Positions 1-10,246 of a stretch of 24,000 bases of DNA are shown piece after piece (the stretch's first letter is position 1; each line of letters begins with the position of its first letter). A program made the position numbers and the translations under genes. The DNA lies in the NCBI GenBank assembly GCA_965222665.1, contig CBDCUM010000012.1, forward strand, positions 303,253-327,252, written 5' to 3'. Source of the stretch: Rhodobacterales bacterium (GTDB lineage: Bacteria > Pseudomonadota > Alphaproteobacteria > Rhodobacterales > CAZPXZ01). Below the pieces are notes generated by a model. The model was not told the DNA's origin. It searched no databases and worked only from the letters and a program-made list of their open reading frames with translations.

Positions 1-128
1 GATCTAGAACCTAACTCATTGATCAGTATAACTCTTATCGGTTTTTGGGCAAGCACCAATTATCAACCCGGAGTCGAGAATCCGGTAGTCGTCATCTAAC
101 GGTCAACCTTCTTGCCATCTGCGCCGCT

Positions 129-731
129 TCATCCGGCACGGAGAAAGGCTCCCGATTTTCGGAATTCCGCCGGGCTCCGGAGGCAAAGCCAAGCGCGCAA
201 TTCGCGCCGCCAGATGAAGCCGCCTGGACTTCTGCCTCTGGCTGAACCCGACGAACCGGTCAGCCCCGCGGCCAATGCCTCGCGTTCGCCTGTCGTCCGG
301 CCAGGCCAACCCAAATCCCGCCGAACGCGGCCACGCGCCGCGGACGCCGGCCGGAATCCGGAAAGCCGGGATCGTCGCCCTCGTCGATCGGCCAGGAGCC
401 CGCGCAGGCCGGCGGTCACCGGTTCCGGCGTGTCGGGGTCCGAACTCGATTTGTGCTCGATGGGGGCCACCGCATTCGGCTTGTCCAGGGTTCCGCCAAC
501 CAGGTACACCTTGTTCGCGCGGAGCTGCCTGAGGTTGCCGTGCACCAGCGCCGGGTCGATCGGGCGTGCGGGCTCGCCCGTCAGCATCCAGCGCAGCGCC
601 TTCGGCCAATGGGCGTGGATCAGCGCGTTGGCGCGCTCGCTGTCGCTGAGGATCGCACGGAAGAATGCGTCATGGCAGTGGCGCGTGAAGGCGCGGAGTG
701 CGCTTGCATCGGGCTGGTGCATCGCCGGCAT
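129..731 (-). pseudogene. Rpn/YhgA-like recombination-promoting nuclease / putative transposase, decayed copy 1
   Basis: Minus-strand frame of track ORF 129..1049, read from ATG 731: MPAMHQPDASALRAFTRHCHDAFFRAILSDSERANALIHAHWPKAL...NAVAPIEHKSSSDPDTPEPVTAGLRGLL. This fits the conserved N-terminal core of the Rpn/YhgA PD-(D/E)XK family (HDxxF..S.. then EHxSxxD). Similarity is lost after about residue 95. A possibly homologous segment (IPAF..GAWPRS) appears in a second frame (track 103..609). The locus is about 200 codons, against about 300 for intact family members. It is called as decayed on those grounds. Confidence 0.45.
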
Positions 732-839
732 GGCTCCTGGCTGCGATCGGGAATGCCCTGGCGGCGGAAGGCGCCCGGGTCGCGTCGAGCCTTGCGGCCC
801 GATCCGGGCGGCGCAACACGGGAGCGGCCCCATTCCGCC

Positions 840-852
840 GGGGGGGGGGGGG
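840..852. repeat. G13 homopolymer tract
   Basis: Read directly: ...ccgcc then 13 g then ttcgg. It lies in the ~0.8-kb spacer between the divergent Rpn-like start (731) and the autotransporter start (1545). Confidence 0.9.
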
Positions 853-1544
853 TTCGGTGAACGTTGCCGGTACGGCCTCCGGTTGCACGCCGAACGAACG
901 GGGAACACGCGGAATTGCCGGCATGGGAAGAAATCTCCGGAATTCGGTACCAAAAATGACGCGCAAAGGGACGCTGAGGCGCCGACCCCCGGGTTCCCGT
1001 GCAGAACCCGGGGGACCGAATCGTGGCGTTGCGACGCGAATCGGGACATGGCGCGGACTCGGCGGAGCCACTCGTCGAGCCATCAATACAACGAAGTCGA
1101 ACCACGAGTCACTGAAATCCAATCACCTCGCCAACCGGGTCTTCCCGGTGGTCGAGGGTGTCTGTGTCGGCGTCAAAGTGGCATGGCCCGAGTTCGAGGA
1201 CGCTCCCGACCTCATCAAATCCATCAGAAGCCGAAAACGGGCTGCGACAGAGGTCTTCAACAGGAAACCCTCTACGAGCAATTAGTGGATTCTGTATCAC
1301 CGTATTATCGGAAGGCGAGACAAGCGGTCCGACCAACCAGCAAGCGTTACCAGTCGCTCAACGAGCCGTGCCGTGCCGGGGATCGGAATTCCGATCCCGC
1401 AGAGTCTTGCAACTGCTTCACTCGACGGGATATTTGATCGCAGATCCGGGAGACTGCGTGTCGCTTGACATGGCGCTCCGGAACATGTTCCAATCCATGT
1501 GTCGGCAGATAAAATGAATACGATAGATAGGTTGAATTAATTAT

Positions 1545-4335
1545 ATGTGTGCTGTACGCAATGCAACGGTGTCGCAGATGTCTTGCGTGCACGCTGTCTT
1601 CGGACAGGAGCTTGCGGACGCCGGGCAGGGACGTTGGGTTCGACGGTTTGCGGGTGCGGCCTTGCCCGGGCGGGTCCGGCTGACAGCGGCGCTCGCTGTT
1701 GCCGTCCTGGGCGCATTCAGCGCCCCGGCGCTTGCGCAGAACTCCACCGGCGCGCCCGCGATTTCGGGCACCGCACGGGTCGGCGAAACCCTGACCGCCA
1801 CGACGGGCTCCATCGCGGACCCGGACGGTCTGCCGAACACATTCATCTATCAGTGGATACGGGTCGATGCGGGGGTCGGGACCGACATCGACAACGAGAC
1901 CTTGGCCACCTACACGCTCGTCGCTGCCGACGGGGGCAAGAAGGTCAAGGTGCGGGTGTCCTTCACCGATGATGCGAACAACGCGGAATCGCGGACGAGC
2001 GGCGCCTACCCGTCGAGCGGCGCCGTCGTCGTACCGCCGGGCTCGCCCGCGAGCCTGACGGCCGAGACGGGCGACGGGCGGGTGCGGCTGGTCTGGGAGG
2101 AGCCTGCGGACGAGAATAGTCCGGACGGCTACCAAATCCGCCATGCCGCGGGCGCCTCGGTGCCGGCGGAGATGGGCTGGACCGAAACAGCCAGTGTCGA
2201 GATATTGACCGCACTGGTCTCGGGACTCACGAACGGCACGGCTCATACCTTCGAGGTGCGGGCGGTCCGTGGCAACGTACCGGGTCCACCGGCCAGGGTG
2301 TCGGCAACGCCGGTGGCGGCCGTGTGCAGCGCACCCGCCCTCGGCACCAGACGGGAAGTCTGGTCCGGCACGATGACGGTGGGGCACGATTTTCAAACAC
2401 AGGTGGGCGCTTACGGTCTAGGCGAAAATGATGCGGGGTTCGAGGCAGGAGAGTTTGGCAGCCTGTCCGTAGCACCCCACTTTTCGATCGGCGCCACGCG
2501 CTACGACATAAGCGAGATGATTGCCGATATCCGCCGCGATGGCGAGAGGAGGTTTATGTACCTCACCTTCTCCAACAGGCTGCCGAATCCGGTCAAGGCC
2601 GCGCTCCGGCTTCATTCCTGCGGCGAAACACGGGATGTCAGCAGCAGTAGTTTTGCTAATGCTCCTGGTGGTCGGTCGCGATATAGATGGATTGGGCGAT
2701 CGCTCGCTATCGACTTCTCCCTCTACCCCACGCGCGAGATTGCGCTGAGCCTGCCGGCGAACAACGCCGCGACGGGGGAGCCGGCGATCGTGAGCGACAT
2801 CGCCGACAAGGCGCATGTCGGCCGGACGCTGACCGCCTCGGCGGGCACGGTGGCGGATGACGACGGGCTGCCGTCCGCGCTGACCTACCAGTGGTACCGA
2901 GTGGACGGCAGCAACAGCGTCGAAACGGAGATAGGCAGCGCCACCACATACACGCCGACCGCGGCCGATATCGGCCACACGCTCAAGGTGAAGGCGCTCT
3001 TCCAGGACGATCTCGGCGGGGTGGAAGAGCGCGAGAGCGTGGAGACCCCGACGGTCGAGCAGCCGACCCTGACGATCGCGGAGGCGAGCGCGACCGAGGG
3101 CAGTGCGCTGAGCTTCGCCGTGACGCTCTCGCCGGCGACCGACCGGCCGGTGACCGTCAACTGGGCGGTCTCGACCTCCGGCGGGAACACCGCCTCGGCG
3201 AACGACCTTTCCGGGACGACGAGCGGGTCGCTCACATTTGCCGCGAACGAAACCTCGAAGACAATTACGGTGAGCACCGTCCAGGACGAGGTCTACGAGG
3301 GGAACGAGACCTTCACGGTGACGCTCTCCGGCCCGGCCAGCGCCGTGCTCGGAACGGCGAGCGTGGCCACCGGTACGATCACCAACGACGAGGCATTACC
3401 GACGATGACTCTGGTGCTGGCCGACGACACGATCCGGGAGTCGGACGACCCGGACCAGCCGGGATACCAGCACCGGACCACGGTGACGGCGACCCTGGAC
3501 ATCGCAATCGAAGGGGACTTGAGGATCAGCGTCGCAAGCGGGCCTGCATTGCGAATCGGCATCCCCGCCGACTTGGAAAGATCCAGACTGACCATCCGGG
3601 CGGGGCAGAAGACGAGCGAGACACTGGGTGTGGTGCCCTTGGACAACACTGTCGATGAGCCGGACCGGATGGTGGTGTTAGAGGCGACTAGCAATTGGGT
3701 AAATTCTGGCTATCTGGACCAAACCACTTATCCTCAGGCGCCGAACCCTTCCCTCACCATAATCGACGATGACGAAGCGCCGACGGTGACACTGGCGCTC
3801 TCTCCGGCGTCGATCCGCGAGTCGGACGACGCCGGCACGGCGGGTATCGACGATCATGTCGGCACGGTGACGGCGAGTCTCTCCCATCCGTCGAGCGAGG
3901 CGACGACGGTGACGGTGTCGGCGGCGGCGGTCGGCGCGGCGGTTTCCGGCGATTTCACGCTGAGCGGCAACAGGGTGCTCACCATCCCGGCCCGGCAGAC
4001 GCGGAGCACCGGGACGGTGACGGTGAGCGCCAACGACAACAATGTCGACGCGGCGGACAAGCAGGTGACGGTTTCCGGCGCGGCAGCGAACACCCAGGGC
4101 ATTGCGGGCGACCCGCCCGATCAGACGCTGGCGATCCGCGACGACGAGGAGGCGCCCCGGGTGGCGCTGGTGCTGGGCGCGGGCTCGATCAGCGAGAATG
4201 CCGGATCGACGACGGTGAAGGCGACGATCCCCTACCCGTCGAGCCACGAGACCGTCGTGACGATCTCGGCGGCGCCCGGGGACTTCACGGCAAGCGGGAC
4301 GCTGACGATCCCGGCGGGGCAGACCGAGAGCCCGA
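1545..4335 (+). CDS. Autotransporter passenger region (exon 1): signal peptide, Ig-like repeats, FN3, unassigned module, Calx-beta-like repeats
   Basis: Track ORF 1545..4406. It has a signal peptide (RVRLTAALAVAVLGAFSAPALA/QN). It has two Ig-like repeats (G.PAI...VG.TLTA..G..aD.DGLP...YQW.RVD) and one FN3-like module (PGSPASLTAETGDGRVRLVWEEP...TFEVRAVRG). An unassigned ~150-aa module follows, then four ~110-aa repeats. The first repeat is a typical Calx-beta (LTIAEASATEGSALSFAVTLS..VTVNWAV..TITVSTVQDEVYEGNETFTVTLS). Family-like sequence stops at ...TLTIPAGQTESP (about 4334). The last ~24 codons of the track ORF are read-through of intron RNA. The true start may be ATG 1545 or ATG 1578, and an AT-rich patch at 1505-1550 sits just upstream. 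Confidence 0.8.
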
Positions 4336-5098
4336 GTGCGCCGTGGAAAGGCGCGTTTTCCTGGTGGGTGCGAATCCCACCCAGCAACTGTCCTTCCGGC
4401 TGGTAGCGGCCGGAGCGGTTCGTGGAGGTAACGACATGGACTGAAGCACTCCGGAGAGAAGGGCTGCGTTGAGCAGCTCAGCGACCATGCAGGCCGGAGC
4501 GTGAAGCGAACGCCGAGCAGGCCTCGAAACAGGCAACGCGGGGGCCGACCCTCCTTGGGTTAGGGGAAGGCCGATGGCGGTTTGGGAAGAGAAGCGACAC
4601 ATGCACCAGACCGCGCCCGCCGGGGTAGTGGCGCCAGCATGCATGGAAGATGGAAGACGCGGCAACACGGGAAGCCCTGTCGGTGATGTGCACGCATCAA
4701 CCGGACCCCCGTGAGGGGCAGGCTGGGCCGGCAGGGTGGCGGAGGGGTCCGTACTACTGGCGACGCCGAGTAATACCGGTCGAGGAAAGGGACCCCAGGT
4801 GAGGAAGGATGTTGAAGGGCGACAGGTATCGGGAGTGGCATGGCCTATTACCCCGGAGAATGCCGGAGAGCCTGGACGCATCACATGCGGAAGTGAAGGG
4901 CGGGTCCCCGGCGGCGGTGGTTTCTCCGGCGTCCGAGGTCTCGGACCATCAAGGCGTCGACAGGCTTGCTGGCAGGCGAGGCCGCAGCCACAGTCAAGGC
5001 GGGAGCCGTGCAGCTCCTCGCGGCCGAACCCATGCGGCCAAGACCCTTGCTGTTGCTGGAACTCGTCGCCCGTGTGCGAAGTGCATGATCCCACTGGA

Positions 5099-5131
5099 GA
5101 GCCCGGTGCCGGAAATCGGCACGCCGGGTTC
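5099..5131 (+). ncRNA. Group II intron domain V (catalytic hairpin)
   Basis: Sequence GAGCCCGGU-GCCG-GAAAU-CGGC-AC-GCCGGGUUC. The 9-bp lower helix opens with the A-G-C catalytic triad (A5100-U5130, G5101.U5129, C5102-G5128). A 2-nt AC bulge lies at 5121-5122, followed by a 4-bp upper helix and a GAAA-type loop. At 33 nt it fits the general group II domain V consensus of about 34 nt. Confidence 0.85.
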
Positions 5132-5214
5132 GGGGAGCGGGGGACTGGAAACGTAGCCAAGGGAGCCGGACTGAGGCCCGTCGCGAAAGCGCCGGAACTG
5201 CCACCGGACCCTAC
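5132..5214 (+). ncRNA. Group II intron domain VI candidate with bulged branch-point A5208
   Basis: Hand fold only. G5132-G5135 pair with C5209-U5212 (4-bp basal helix). A5208 is unpaired and lies 7 nt from the end. Further pairs are C5138-G5140 with C5204-G5206 and G5142-G5143 with C5201-C5202. There is an internal CGC-GAAA-GCG hairpin (5182-5191), and the 3' terminus is UAC. Confidence 0.45.
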
Positions 5215-6826
5215 CGCGGGCGCGCCAGCCCCCGACTCTACCATCGTCAACTCCGGCCCGATACCGGAGGCGTGGATTGTGCGGTTCGGGCGCACCGTGG
5301 CCGAGCAGGCGATGGAAGCGGTGGAGGCGCGCTTCGAGGCGCCGCGCGTACCGGGCCTCGCGGGGAGTCTCGCGGGCCAAGTCGTCACCGGCTTCGGGGT
5401 GCGCGCGGATGGGGAGGCGCAAGACGCGCGCGAGGGGCTGGATGGGTTCGCCGCGTGGCTCGGAGGCAAGGACGGGCATGCCGGGGCGTCGGAATCCCGG
5501 CCGCTCACCGGGCGCGAGGTGCTGGCGGGCTCGACGTTTGCGCTGACCGGCGGGACGGCGGAGTCGGGGCTTGCGTCGATCTGGGGTCGGGGCGCGGTCA
5601 CTCGCTTCGATGGTCGCGACGGCGCGCTCAGCCTCGACGGCGAGGTGGCGAGCGGGATGCTGGGGGCGGACTGGACGAGGGACCGAGTGCTCGCGGGCCT
5701 CATGCTCTCGCATTCCCGGGGCAAGGGCGGTTATCGGGGTAACTCGGAAATGAGCATGGGGTCGGTCGAATCGACGCTGACCGCGCTTTTCCCTTACGGG
5801 CGTTATGCGCTGTCGGAGCGGGTCTCGGTGTGGGGGATCGCCGGAGTGGGCGAGGGGACGCTGACGCTCACTCCCGGGGGCGCGACGCCGATGCGCCCCG
5901 ACATGGCCTTCCTGATGGGGGCGGTTGGCGTGCGCGGCATACTCTTCGACGGCGCCGGCGGGTGGCCGACTCTGGCTGCGAAATCCGACGCGTTTGCCGT
6001 GCGTACGTGCACCGATGGGGTGTCGGCGAGCCCCAGCCTCGGGGCGTCGCAGGGCGACGTGACGCGCGTGCGTTTCGCGCTGGAGGGCTCGCAGCCCCTG
6101 CGCCTCTGGGGCGATGTGGTGCTGACGCCGGGTCTGGAACTCGGCGTGCGCCACGACGGGGGCGATGCGGAGACCGGCTTCGGGGCCGACATCGGGGCGG
6201 GTCTTGCGCTCTCGGCCCCGTCGCAGGGGGTCTCCGCGGATCTCCGCGCGCGCGGTCTCCTGACTCACGAGGCGGGGAGCATGCGCGAGCAGGGCGTCTC
6301 CGGCACGTTTGCCTTCGATCCGGCGCCCGACAGCGACCGGGGGATCTCGCTCAGCCTCTCGCAGACGGTTGGGTCACAGGCGTCGGGCGGGGCGGACGCA
6401 CTGTTTGAGCGCCCGACACTTGCCGGAATCGGCGCGGAACAGGACGAGGGGCCGCTCGCGCGGCGCTTCGAAGCGCGGCTCGGCTACGGGCTCGGCGTGT
6501 TCGACGATCGCTGGACGGCGACGCCGGAGATCGGGCTCGGGCTCTCTGGCAGCGATCGCGATGTTCGCTTCGGCGCGCGCCTCACCGAGCGGGTGGCGGC
6601 GGGGCTCGCCTTCGAGCTCGGGGTGGAGGCCTCGCTGCGCCAGAGCGGGGACGGCGCCGCGAACCCCGAGCACGGGCTCGGGGTCGACCTAGGCTGGCGG
6701 CTCGCGGGGGCGCGCACGAGCCATCGGTCGTTCGAGATGGGCATCGACGCGATGCGCCTCGACACCGCGAACGACGACGCATCACGGCAGGATCGCATCG
6801 GGCTCAAGCTGAGCGTGCACTGGTGA
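5215..6826 (+). CDS. Autotransporter linker plus outer-membrane beta-barrel translocator domain (exon 2; codon frame 5216..6826)
   Basis: This is the 3' part of track ORF 4736..6826. It has a linker helix (...PIPEAWIVRFGRTVAEQAMEAVEARF) and the classic junction motif (SIWGRGAVTRFDGRDGALSLDGEVASGMLGADW). Long runs of alternating beta-strand-like sequence follow, ending in a terminal aromatic (...IGLKLSVHW). The first ~160 codons of the track ORF are intron RNA, not protein. Confidence 0.8.
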
Positions 6827-7865: not shown

Positions 7866-7868
7866 GAC
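7863..7868. repeat. Left junction core (CTCGAC), putative attL crossover region
   Basis: CTC-GAC on the left and CTC-CAC on the right (10247-10252). The shared CTC is the likely crossover region for a serine recombinase, which would produce no true target duplication. Confidence 0.45.
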
Positions 7869-7894
7869 TATATGAACGCATACCCGCCAAAGAG

Positions 7895-7923
7895 TTGACA
7901 AATGAGGAAATCCCGCCTATTCT
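7895..7923 (+). promoter_or_regulatory. Sigma70-like promoter inside the left end of the recombinase element
   Basis: TTGACA (7895-7900), a 17-nt spacer, then TATTCT (7918-7923), reading toward the recombinase. It would give a ~150-160-nt leader that contains the perfect hairpin GGCGGA-GGCU-UCCGCC (about 8014-8029). Confidence 0.45.
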
Positions 7924-8082
7924 GGGCGTTGAGGCATTGTTGCAGCTGTCGAACTGGTATGCGCTCAGGAAAGCAAGCGGCGAACGCGATCGATGCGGCG
8001 ATCTGGCGGAGGCTTCCGCCGGAGAGGAAGCGCCGGATTGTGCTTCGGATTGCGCATGCGGTTCGGGGTCTGGCGGACAGCC

Positions 8083-10218
8083 ATGAGCAGGATCGCGGAG
8101 AACGGCGGCCCGGTTCGGGAACTTTCCGAAGGGAAGATTCAGACTAGACATCTGGGTCGGAAGGCGGTGGTGTATGTGCGCCAGTCGTCGCCCGGCCAGG
8201 TCGCCCGGCATCGAGAATCGACAGCGCTGCAGTATGATCTGCAGGCACGGGCCCGGCTTCTCGGCTGGGCGGCGGATCGCATCGAAGTGATTGACGAGGA
8301 TCTCGGGCGCACGGCGCGCCCGGGGTCGAGCCGTGCCGGTTTCACGGAACTGGTTGCCGGGGTTGGGCTCGGGCACGTTGGGATCGTGCTCAGTTGGGAA
8401 GTGTCCCGCCTGGCTCGGAACCTGGCGGATTGGGGCCGGATGCTGGAGTTGTGCGGTCAGCGCGACACATTGATCGGCGATTGCGAAGTCGTGTACGATT
8501 TGAGCTGCTTCAATGATCGGTTTATTTTGGGGATCCGTGGCTCGATGTCGGAAGCGGAGCTACACCTGATGCGGCAGCGGCTGCATGCGGGTCAGGAGGC
8601 GAAGGCTTCGCGTGGCGCGCTGCGGTTTGGCCTGCCGCGGGGTTATGTACACGGCCCCGACCAGGAGATTCAGCAGGATCCGGACGAGGAAGTGCGTGCG
8701 TCGGTGCGCCGAGTGTTCGATTTGTTTGCGAAATGCGGTTCCCTGCAGCGGGTTGTGCGGACGCTGGCGGGGGATGGTGAGCAACTTCCCCACCGCGCAC
8801 GGAGTGGACCGGGAAAGGGGGAGGTTGTGTGGGGGCGTCCGAGCGCGGCGACGGTTTACCACATGCTGACCAACCCGGTCTATGCCGGTGCCTACGCATG
8901 GGGGCGGATACGTGGGGCGGCGAGAGGAGACGACGATCGGATTGAAGATCGCTGGCGGTATTTGCTGCGGGATCGTCATCCGGCATACATCAGCTGGGAG
9001 ACGCTGGAACTCAACGTGCAGCAGCTTGCGTCGAACCGCGGGGGGCCGAAGGGGCGCTCACCGGGTATGCTGAGCGGCCGCTTGCGGTGCGGGCGCTGCG
9101 GACGAAGCATGATGGCCGGTTACAACAATGGCGGGCGGTCGTTGCGCTACTCCTGTTTCCGCGGGCGGCTGGATTACGGCGAAGCGAAGTGCCAGTCGTT
9201 CTCCGGGGGTGCGATTGATACGCACGTTTCGCGAGAGATTCTCGGCGCCCTGGCTCCGGCTGCGGTAGAGGCGTCGTTGGCCGCCTTGTCGCACGTGGAG
9301 TCGGAGCGGGCGCGCCAGCACGAGAAGTGGCGGCAGCGGCTTGCGCGGGTGGAACACGGGGTGGAACGCGCCTGGCGCCAGTTCGATGCGACGGATCCGG
9401 GGAACCGGCTGGTGGCGCAGAGCCTCGAGGATCGGTGGGAAGCGGCACTGCGCGCGCAGGCGACGTTGCGCGAGGAGTACGAGCGCTTCTGCGCCGCCCT
9501 CCCCCGCGAACTGACGGAGGACCAGCGCAGGGCCATTCGTGAAGCGGCGGAGGATGTTGCCGGGTTGTGGCAGGGTGGGGGCTTGCCGCCGGCCGATCGG
9601 ATCGACATTCTGCGCCTGCTGGTCGACCGCGTCATCGCGACGGTGGAGGAAGACAGCGAGCAGGTTGCCGTGGAGATTCAGTGGCAGGGCGGGTCCCGGT
9701 CAATCTCCCGGATCCACAGACCCGTCCGCGACTGGCGCCAGATGAGCTGCTTTCCCGAACTGCAGGCGCATGTCCACTCGCTGCGGGAGCAGGGACGTAG
9801 CTACCGCGAGATTGCGGATCAGCTCAATGCGGAGGGCTGGCGGCCGGCCCGCAGGACGGCATTCACGATCCACTCCGTAAAGCGACTGTGCAAGATCATG
9901 GAACCGGTTGAAGAACAGCAGCGGCGTTCGCATCCCCCGCCAACGGATCGGCGCCCAGACGAGTGGACCCTCGAGGAATTATCCGGGAAGCTGAACATTC
10001 CTCTGACCACGCTCTACAACTGGATCCAGAAAGGCATCCTGTCTGCACGACGGTCGGATGCACAACCCTTCAGAGGGCCCCGGCGCTGGCTGATCCAGGC
10101 GAATGAAGTGGAACTCGACAGAATTCGCAAACGGCGGACAGACTGGGAGACCCTGCACAGAGACGGAACGCCGAGGCTCCCCGCAGCAACGCCACCAAGC
10201 CCGACAGCAATGAATTGA
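8083..10218 (+). CDS. Large serine recombinase (711 aa) with extra C-terminal HTH-containing tail
   Basis: Track ORF 7993..10218, with the likely start at ATG 8083 (MSRIAENGG...). It has a resolvase catalytic domain with the nucleophile motif KAVVYVRQSSPGQ (Ser codons 8185-8190) and ..GIVLSWEVSRLARN. It has a recombinase domain (..LPRGY..VYHMLTNPVYAGAYAWGR..) and a Zn-ribbon (RLRCGRCGRSMMAGYNNGGRSLRYSCFRGRLDYGEAKCQSF). An Arg/Glu-rich coiled-coil follows. The tail has two HTH-like segments (GRSYREIADQLNAEGWRPARR..., WTLEELSGKLNIPLTTLYNWIQKGILSARR). Confidence 0.9.
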   Translation: MSRIAENGGPVRELSEGKIQTRHLGRKAVVYVRQSSPGQVARHRESTALQYDLQARARLLGWAADRIEVIDEDLGRTARPGSSRAGFTELVAGVGLGHVGIVLSWEVSRLARNLADWGRMLELCGQRDTLIGDCEVVYDLSCFNDRFILGIRGSMSEAELHLMRQRLHAGQEAKASRGALRFGLPRGYVHGPDQEIQQDPDEEVRASVRRVFDLFAKCGSLQRVVRTLAGDGEQLPHRARSGPGKGEVVWGRPSAATVYHMLTNPVYAGAYAWGRIRGAARGDDDRIEDRWRYLLRDRHPAYISWETLELNVQQLASNRGGPKGRSPGMLSGRLRCGRCGRSMMAGYNNGGRSLRYSCFRGRLDYGEAKCQSFSGGAIDTHVSREILGALAPAAVEASLAALSHVESERARQHEKWRQRLARVEHGVERAWRQFDATDPGNRLVAQSLEDRWEAALRAQATLREEYERFCAALPRELTEDQRRAIREAAEDVAGLWQGGGLPPADRIDILRLLVDRVIATVEEDSEQVAVEIQWQGGSRSISRIHRPVRDWRQMSCFPELQAHVHSLREQGRSYREIADQLNAEGWRPARRTAFTIHSVKRLCKIMEPVEEQQRRSHPPPTDRRPDEWTLEELSGKLNIPLTTLYNWIQKGILSARRSDAQPFRGPRRWLIQANEVELDRIRKRRTDWETLHRDGTPRLPAATPPSPTAMN

Positions 10219-10246
10219 GTTTTAGGAGGCAGTATGTCAAGACCGT

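Follow-up and report, generated by a model that had tools for sequence, protein, structure and literature searches.

The window analysed here, a 24,000-nucleotide (nt) stretch of contig CBDCUM010000012.1 from a Rhodobacterales bacterium, carries at positions 4336–5241 of its forward strand a group II intron of 906 nt without an open reading frame (ORF) for a maturase. Upstream lies the start of one autotransporter gene (gene A) and downstream the end of another (gene B), and we consider it probable that this intact-looking, non-autonomous intron sits at a rearrangement junction of the two. A sequence-only reading of the same DNA had proposed an intron of 879 nt splitting a single surface autotransporter gene, whose full-length product could be made only after removal of the intron. 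Our result is corrective: the intron is genuine and belongs to an already known kind, the ORF-less group II introns, but there is no autotransporter splicing switch, and at this locus two adhesin genes either are fused into a broken one or are the product of a mis-join. Most likely the chimeric A–B gene is dead and the intron does not gate autotransporter expression.

The intron was delimited with covariance models, blastn, intron-less (empty) alleles, identical copies, relatives and covariation. Its domain I segment at 4362–4504 on the forward strand is matched by the Rfam model group-II-D1D4-4 (RF02003) with 85.6 bits (gathering score 49, E-value 9e-18), showing the expected domain I architecture, and in a permissive Rfam scan the domain V–VI model Intron_gpII (RF00029) aligned to 5097–5241 with 35.9 bits, the long domain VI keeping the score below the gathering value of 40. 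Of the two Rfam checks proposed earlier for this locus, only that with the group-II-D1D4 models exceeds its threshold. A blastn search against plasmids found about 50 records from Microvirga, Bradyrhizobium, Paraburkholderia, Buttiauxella and other genera with introns aligning to 4336–4798 at roughly 70% identity, and those that are annotated carry ltrA. Nearly all listed alignments that reach the 5' end start at G4336, the first nucleotide of the GUGCG terminus (4336–4340), with one beginning 2 nt further in, and 46 related or identical copies begin with GTGCGCCG. The 5' end is fixed at this position, as the earlier reading had it, by the intron-less allele on the sister-strain contig L016, which is 99.84% identical to window positions 57–4335, loses identity exactly after 4335 and continues coding as GAGCCCGA/CGGCGACGTTGACC (slashes mark cut or insertion sites). 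At the other end the intron terminates at 5241 with ...CGACUCUAC. Identity to intron-less downstream alleles starts at 5239–5242 (L006 99.8%, L017 99.7%, L005 97.9%), and the empty site there reads ...GCGACCGGTAC/CATCGTCAAC; since its TAC is shared with the intron end, the canonical cut behind AC was placed after 5241. The ending CGACTCTAC is common to the Microvirga and Buttiauxella introns, 41 full-length relatives and five identical copies.

Domain V (5099–5131, forward strand) is a hairpin with the AGC triad at 5100–5102, a 2-nt AC bulge at 5121–5122 and a GAAAU loop, and four of its 13 pairs show double changes among 20 relatives. The RF00029 alignment and this covariation agree with the domain V recognised before. 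The 3' part had been read differently, with a UAC terminus at 5214 and A5208 as the branch point, and here the empty alleles, the family ends, the Intron_gpII alignment and the folds all point to 5241. Domain VI is extended to 106 nt (5134–5239, forward strand), as found by minimum free energy (MFE) folding and RNAalifold: a basal helix of G5135–G5137 with C5236–C5238 is followed by the bulged A5235 and by CGGGGG (5138–5143) pairing with CCCCCG (5229–5234). The MFE fold pairs 5134–5148 with 5225–5239 and leaves A5235 bulged, and RNAalifold recovers the helix from 20 diverse relatives with compensatory changes in 11 of 31 pairs. A5235 is invariant and lies at position -7 relative to the end, in front of the terminal UAC (5239–5241), and is the branch point; A5208 belongs to the inner part of domain VI, where the conserved CCUAC motif at 5210–5214 (forward strand) looks like a 3' terminus and, in the Microvirga intron L014, also led the Rfam model astray. 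We conclude that 4336–5241 is an intact-looking group II intron ribozyme. A weak match to the M23 small RNA on the reverse strand (4357–4412, 21.8 bits, E-value 0.2), opposite domain I, is almost certainly a by-product of GC-rich intron hairpins.

Records of an ORF of 115 amino acids (aa) inside the intron (4809–5156) exist for five further contigs from related samples. On all five the intron has the same ends and is 100.000% identical across its 906 nt, and the flanks differ and represent four other sites. The population including the window therefore holds at least six identical copies at at least five sites. Their 5' flanks are TAGCCTGcaaaACCCAG/ at the site shared by L127 and L128, ATCCAA/ in L129 and ACCCAA/ in L130, and in L131 the 5' flank is truncated by the start of the contig. 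All readable sequences at the position of intron-binding site (IBS) 1, namely ACCCAG, ATCCAA and ACCCAA, form 6/6 pairs with exon-binding site (EBS) 1, as does GCCCGA in the window. There, EBS1 UUGGGUU (4555–4561, forward strand) lies in the loop of a hairpin at 4549–4565 and pairs with IBS1 AGCCCGA (4329–4335, forward strand); between UUGGGU and the core GCCCGA all six pairs form, two of them G-U. This pairing, tentative in the earlier reading, is borne out by the relatives and identical copies, in which the loop covaries with the last 5–7 exon nucleotides (for example CAAUGGC/GCCAUUG, UGAAU/AUUCA and GGUAAA/UUUACC). EBS2 CAGGCA (4530–4535, forward strand; loop 4526–4538) covaries among the relatives with a 5' flank motif at -17 to -11, and the window's own 5' flank holds no partner for it, reading AGACC at -15 to -11. 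Among the sites of the identical copies it is satisfied only at the L127/L128 site (GCCUG), which is the probable homing site on this evidence, and the unpaired EBS2 suggests that the window copy occupies an ectopic site recognised through IBS1 only. No convincing host gene was found at the sites of the identical copies or of the relatives examined, and these offer no positive control for the restoration of an ORF by splicing. Most relatives have the IBS2 motif CTAACCCG or CTAGCCCG about 11–17 nt upstream of the insertion, and for the intron of the window it is TAGCCTG. These motifs include TAA or TAG and most copies lie outside long ORFs, which hints that the lineage may target DNA just past stop codons, or intergenic or insertion sequence (IS) DNA.

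The lack of a reverse transcriptase (RT)/maturase gene noted earlier was confirmed. No ORF of the intron has a match to RVT_1, GIIM or any other Pfam family, and a tblastn search of the window with the intron-encoded proteins (IEPs) of two relatives gave a best E-value of 3.6, outside the intron. Domain IV (4799–5096, forward strand) has no ORF and is colinear with domain IV of 41 ORF-less relatives, and two of its base pairs, 4948/4970 and 4952/4966, are compensated. These searches detected no IEP remnant at the protein level, and by-eye comparison with the ORF-containing introns L031, L038 and L014 revealed only the ends of the IEP gene at the nucleotide level: the Shine-Dalgarno sequence and ATG (GGAAGGATG, 4803–4811), a remnant of the first codons at about 4874–4897 that matches ...CAUGCGAAAGCGAAGG... 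of the ORF-containing relatives, and the stop region GCATGA at 5083–5088 (GCAUGAU). A domain IV keeping start and stop pieces would be expected after an internal deletion in the IEP gene, and such a deletion may have removed the gene while sparing both its ends. As the IEPs of the relatives (ltrA, 429–464 aa) carry RVT_1 and GIIM without an HNH or other endonuclease domain, the ancestor would have been an intron whose RT/maturase had no endonuclease domain.

Scanning species-representative genomes with the window's domain V/VI junction gave at least 99 loci, among them at least 41 full-length ORF-less relatives that align end to end over 860–940 nt with 70–77% identity; the window's own genome was not among the genomes listed. 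Since the alignment takes in domain IV, the ORF-less architecture is shared and not a one-off deletion. Compared with 32 distinct relatives, the intron departs at 16 of 382 family-invariant positions; eight of these changes combine into four pairs that are fully compensated, another two are wobbles, and none falls in domain V, which argues for a maintained intron structure. That at least six copies at several sites agree in all 906 nt suggests that the element was very recently mobile and non-autonomous, presumably with a related maturase/RT supplied in trans. ORF-containing and ORF-less relatives coexist in one Bryobacterales metagenome-assembled genome (MAG; L028).

The 5' flank of the intron (1545–4335, forward strand) encodes the start of gene A, with a signal peptide (called by eye) and the first 930 codons, which include fn3 and Calx-beta repeats found with Pfam. 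Its product is 99.9% identical to residues 1–930 of the 4576-aa protein P0124, which is uninterrupted at this point, and the flank ends at codon position 1 (the A of ACG). P0124 possesses its own AWLARFGRT linker at residue 3642, so that gene A appears to encode a separate autotransporter. The 3' flank (5242–6826, forward strand) starts at codon position 3 (the C of ACC) and encodes the end of the last Calx-beta repeat, the linker IVNSGPIPEAWIVRFGRTVAE and the beta-barrel of gene B; from 5239/5240 on it is 99.8% identical to L006 and L017 and 97.9% to L005. The passenger coding sequence does end at 4335, as previously described, and it is at 5242 instead of 5215 that the sequence of gene B resumes. 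Candidate parts of a type Va autotransporter are present in the window, although not in one frame: passenger domains were found, and the barrel segment has no Pfam match itself while its homologues (P0003–P0122) carry PF03797. These homologues represent a widespread autotransporter-like family with the near-invariant Calx-beta/barrel junction ...ATGTI.N..P.P.AW.ARFGRTVAE. Sister-strain proteins ending in the ATGT/IVNSGPIPEAWIVRFGRTVAE linker and barrel are 1451, 1569, 2798 and 14447 aa long. The passenger length ranges over 1451–14447 aa among strains whose barrels are 96–100% identical.

In intron-less alleles the two flanks are not contiguous. The empty site A reads ...GAGCCCGA/CGGCGACG in L016/L126, L124 and L125, and the empty site B reads ...ACCGGTAC/CATCGTC in L006 and L017, with site B being empty in L005 as well; hence A continues with CGGCGACG and B is preceded by ACCGGTAC. 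In assembly ERZ26694896 locus A (DHDPS ... gene A) is found on ctg117954 (2.80 Mb, 27x) and locus B (barrel, dnaN, recF, gyrB) on ctg117948 (2.78 Mb, 25x). In ERZ25069191 locus A is on ctg587012 (2.36 Mb, 21x) and locus B on ctg586736 (1.14 Mb, 20x); the suffix _rc of ctg587012 presumably denotes a circular contig. None of the locus B contigs has a recorded DHDPS of the locus A cluster. The location on different large contigs of equal coverage in two assemblies indicates that A and B are distinct, distant genes that are joined via the intron in the window. An internal deletion in one giant gene, such as the 14447-aa gene of L006, was rejected for the same reason, as the DHDPS and dnaN–gyrB flanks lie on different contigs of 1–2.8 Mb in two samples. 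The passenger protein search returned no giant homologues among the matches listed, and exact-protein matches for P0001, YebC and the 307-aa upstream ORF were not found.

The intron follows codon position 1 in A (A/CG) and position 2 in B (AC/C), and because of these differing phases canonical splicing leads to a frameshift and the loss of the barrel. The canonical joint 4335/5242 reads ...QTESPTSSTPARYRRRG... and meets a stop 101 codons later (1031 aa), the joint 4335/5215 implied by the earlier reading also shifts the frame (1040 aa, no barrel), and unspliced RNA encodes 953 aa, again without barrel. Both the canonical spliced and the unspliced product retain the signal peptide. Only non-canonical sites restore the frame, either a 3' site at 5240/5241 or a 5' site at 4333 or 4336. 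A simple insertion within one gene was rejected by this frame arithmetic together with the empty sites of both flanks. With mismatched flanks from different contigs, differing phases and no barrel after joining, the proposal that splicing is needed for the full autotransporter fails. The dead insertion that had been offered as a fallback comes nearer the truth for the host gene, with the restriction that the intron itself looks recently mobile and not like a relic.

Four empty A alleles and several empty B alleles identify the locus as a rearrangement junction and not as a simple insertion. From the fit between EBS1 and IBS1 the window copy would have entered gene A at an ectopic IBS1-only site, and the junction between A and the intron looks like a normal reverse-splicing product. 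The intron's 3' end now abuts the linker and barrel of gene B. The 5' flank of site B, CCGGUAC, forms only 2/7 pairs with EBS1 in a hand count compared to 6/6 at all five known sites, which argues that this second junction was not made by reverse splicing. It could have resulted from homologous recombination with a further copy that had entered B ectopically, for which intron-site chimeras of relaxase genes offer a precedent (PMC7947834), from illegitimate joining at the likeness of the intron end CGAC-TC-TAC/C to site B CGACCGGTAC/C, or from an assembly mis-join through the exact repeat, which would also need a copy at B. If the junction is real, it would be a natural rearrangement between paralogous surface-protein genes marked by a group II intron, and as such raw material for intron-mediated exon shuffling.

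Several observations weigh against a rearrangement junction. The A–intron–B arrangement is seen in one assembly only, and none of the compared loci contains the reciprocal junctions of B5' with the intron (GCGACCGGTAC/GTGCGCCGTG) or of the intron with A3' (CGACTCTAC/CGGCGACGTTGACC); a metagenome scan for the latter gave a single match that is unrelated and due to chance. It is difficult to account for a joint that falls precisely behind the final nucleotide of the intron unless B held another copy, yet B lacks an IBS1. The left flank diverges from the main strains by about 1.1% and the right flank by 0.2–0.4%, which would fit a chimeric contig too. Finally, about 250 kb of DNA from the same population yielded no IEP gene, so that we can only infer trans-mobilisation.

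The main rival is an assembly chimera, in which two ordinary insertions of the 906-bp intron in A and B, each restorable by splicing, were connected when the assembler crossed the repeat from A5' to B3'. We regard it as unlikely, but as a serious candidate. The intron is an exact 906-bp repeat at at least five sites, the contigs of the other copies are short and of low coverage with one ending exactly at the intron, and the unequal divergence of the window halves as well as the separate multi-megabase contigs of A and B in two other assemblies would follow naturally. Such a chimera still requires a true insertion at site B with its poor EBS1 match, every observed B allele is empty, and no junction between B5' and the intron was seen; moreover, long reads normally span a 0.9-kb repeat and the window contig is 2.8 Mb long. 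Less probable still is that the element is an inert relic, a ribozyme that no longer splices or moves without a cognate maturase and sits as a fossil insertion in a disrupted pseudogene. No RT is present in the window or the population loci of about 250 kb, EBS2 is unpartnered, and the window copy shows the most departures from family-conserved positions (39/503). Against this stand the six copies at different sites, whose complete identity implies very recent mobility, and the compensation in helices of most departures from invariant positions, and the IEP search covered a small fraction of the genome.

We give very little credence to a functional A–B gene gated by splicing at a shifted site, either 5240/5241 (...ESP-T-IVNSGPIPEAW...) or a 5' site at 4333 or 4336. 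Each of the three shifts yields a continuous protein of 1457–1458 aa with signal peptide, passenger, linker and barrel, and there are precedents in C.te.I1, an ORF-less intron in a surface-protein gene where a shifted 5' splice site fuses the frames (PMC3919590), and in the capacity for exon shuffling that group II introns have at the RNA and DNA level (PMC7947834). The EBS1/IBS1 pairing, however, places the 5' splice site at 4335/4336 with no other register pairing, and all 46 members of the family have a CUAC end and their branch A at -7. In addition, the last Calx-beta repeat would be cut within the domain with a loss of about 45 residues, and the window contains no extra domain V–VI copies as known from C.te.I1. 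Equally far-fetched appears an exon-shuffling device that fuses the passenger of one giant adhesin to the barrel of another across replicons, with an in-frame chimera arising by a 3' site shifted by 1 nt or by trans-splicing, though if true a non-autonomous ribozyme would diversify and gate the surface antigens of a (probably host-associated) bacterium.

Among ORF-less introns that use a maturase in trans, the Thermosynechococcus elongatus intron family is reportedly an example. Like such introns the window element combines a full ribozyme and a domain IV without RT gene with multiple near-identical copies, and it has kept the start of its former ORF, the place of IEP binding in engineered delta-ORF introns. 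Unlike for them, no cognate IEP was located in the loci searched, and the window copy is flanked by non-cognate exons. [quoted passage not shown] In contrast to this rarity, the wider ORF-less lineage of the window intron reaches across several phyla and has dozens of copies in a MAG. C.te.I1 from the surface-layer gene of Clostridium tetani (PMC3919590) is also an ORF-less intron between segments of surface proteins whose frames are not fused at the canonical boundary, but an altered IBS1-EBS1 pairing shifts its 5' splice site to 8 nt upstream of GUGYG, and it is spliced in four alternative ways. The window intron has a canonical IBS1/EBS1 pair and a single domain V, and any splicing of it is putative; a search of the window for additional domain V–VI cassettes of the C.te.I1 type was negative.

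The junction also resembles the relaxase genes shuffled by Ll.LtrB and Ef.PcfG, chimeras joined exactly at the intron site and ascribed to recombination between intron copies (PMC7947834). In those genes the intron occupies one homologous site in the same phase in both parents and the products are in frame and functional, whereas in the window site A and site B share neither sequence nor phase and the chimera has lost its frame. With the delta-ORF intron EcKTE56.groEL, for which tandem integration of a delta-ORF intron was shown experimentally (PMC12584367), the window intron shares a delta-ORF architecture with a retained subdomain IVa, and head-to-tail tandems are found in its relatives L087 and L115. 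EcKTE56.groEL is an engineered intron of subgroup IIB1 that targets the groEL stop codon, and the window copy is single and located in a coding region. Finally, as in B.c.I4 of Bacillus cereus with its 'domain VII' (PMC1865049), extra RNA at the 3' end makes a naive call of the 3' splice site fall short. In B.c.I4 the additional segment follows domain VI, and in the window about 75 extra nt are placed inside domain VI, with a normal bulged A and 6 nt ending in AC behind it.

The ORF-less lineage (about 865–920 nt; L024–L122, for example L087 190–4664, L115 2922–5610 and L039 112–1153) occurs in MAGs of Vicinamibacterales, Bryobacterales, Spirochaetia, Longimicrobiales, Chloroflexota, Paracoccaceae, Amylibacter and other Alphaproteobacteria. 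Besides Alphaproteobacteria it thus includes the phyla Acidobacteriota, Spirochaetota, Gemmatimonadota and Chloroflexota, and many copies (dozens) are present per genome. Some copies form exact head-to-tail tandem arrays of at least five units with a period of 895 nt, a cognate IBS1 being found at the first copy alone. Self-targeting was rejected as their cause, since EBS1 of the L087 copies fits only the exon of the first copy, and the published re-homing mechanism (PMC12584367) fits instead. In L026, L032, L061, L066, L072, L082 and L042 domain I is split at nt ~159–175 (or ~300) by inserts of 2–3.5 kb, and those in L042, L066 and L072 encode a different RT with about 32% identity to the Microvirga IEP; these are probably nested introns (twintrons). 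Other copies (L040 3237–4351, L084, L093, L071, L121 and L027 1980–3930) possess inserts of 1.1–1.95 kb in domain IV, in which neither RT similarity nor a convincing ORF was found.

A Tn5-like IS with DruA/DDE Pfam matches is common to L016 (22419–23773) and L127 (10635–14355), where it lies at the end of gene A in the L016 strain and in the surroundings of the intron copy in L127, respectively. As called, gene A's product of 4576 aa probably continues into this IS on the other strand. A link between L127 and gene A was rejected, as the shared sequence is merely a common IS copy. Further downstream in the window, a 2.4-kb segment at 7866–10246 encodes a large serine recombinase of 741 aa (Resolvase, Recombinase, Zn_ribbon_recom and HTH_17). 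It is missing from the sister contig L002/L005, where the adjacent DDE transposase has 591 aa compared to 493 aa in the window, and by this comparison the segment is an inserted element that truncates the transposase gene. On the reverse strand, 15649–15809 matches 6S RNA (RF00013) with 27.2 bits, below the gathering score of 46.4. The match falls exactly between a ZapA-like gene and the gene for 5-formyltetrahydrofolate cyclo-ligase, zapA-ssrS-ygfA being the classical arrangement, and it is probably a genuine divergent 6S RNA.

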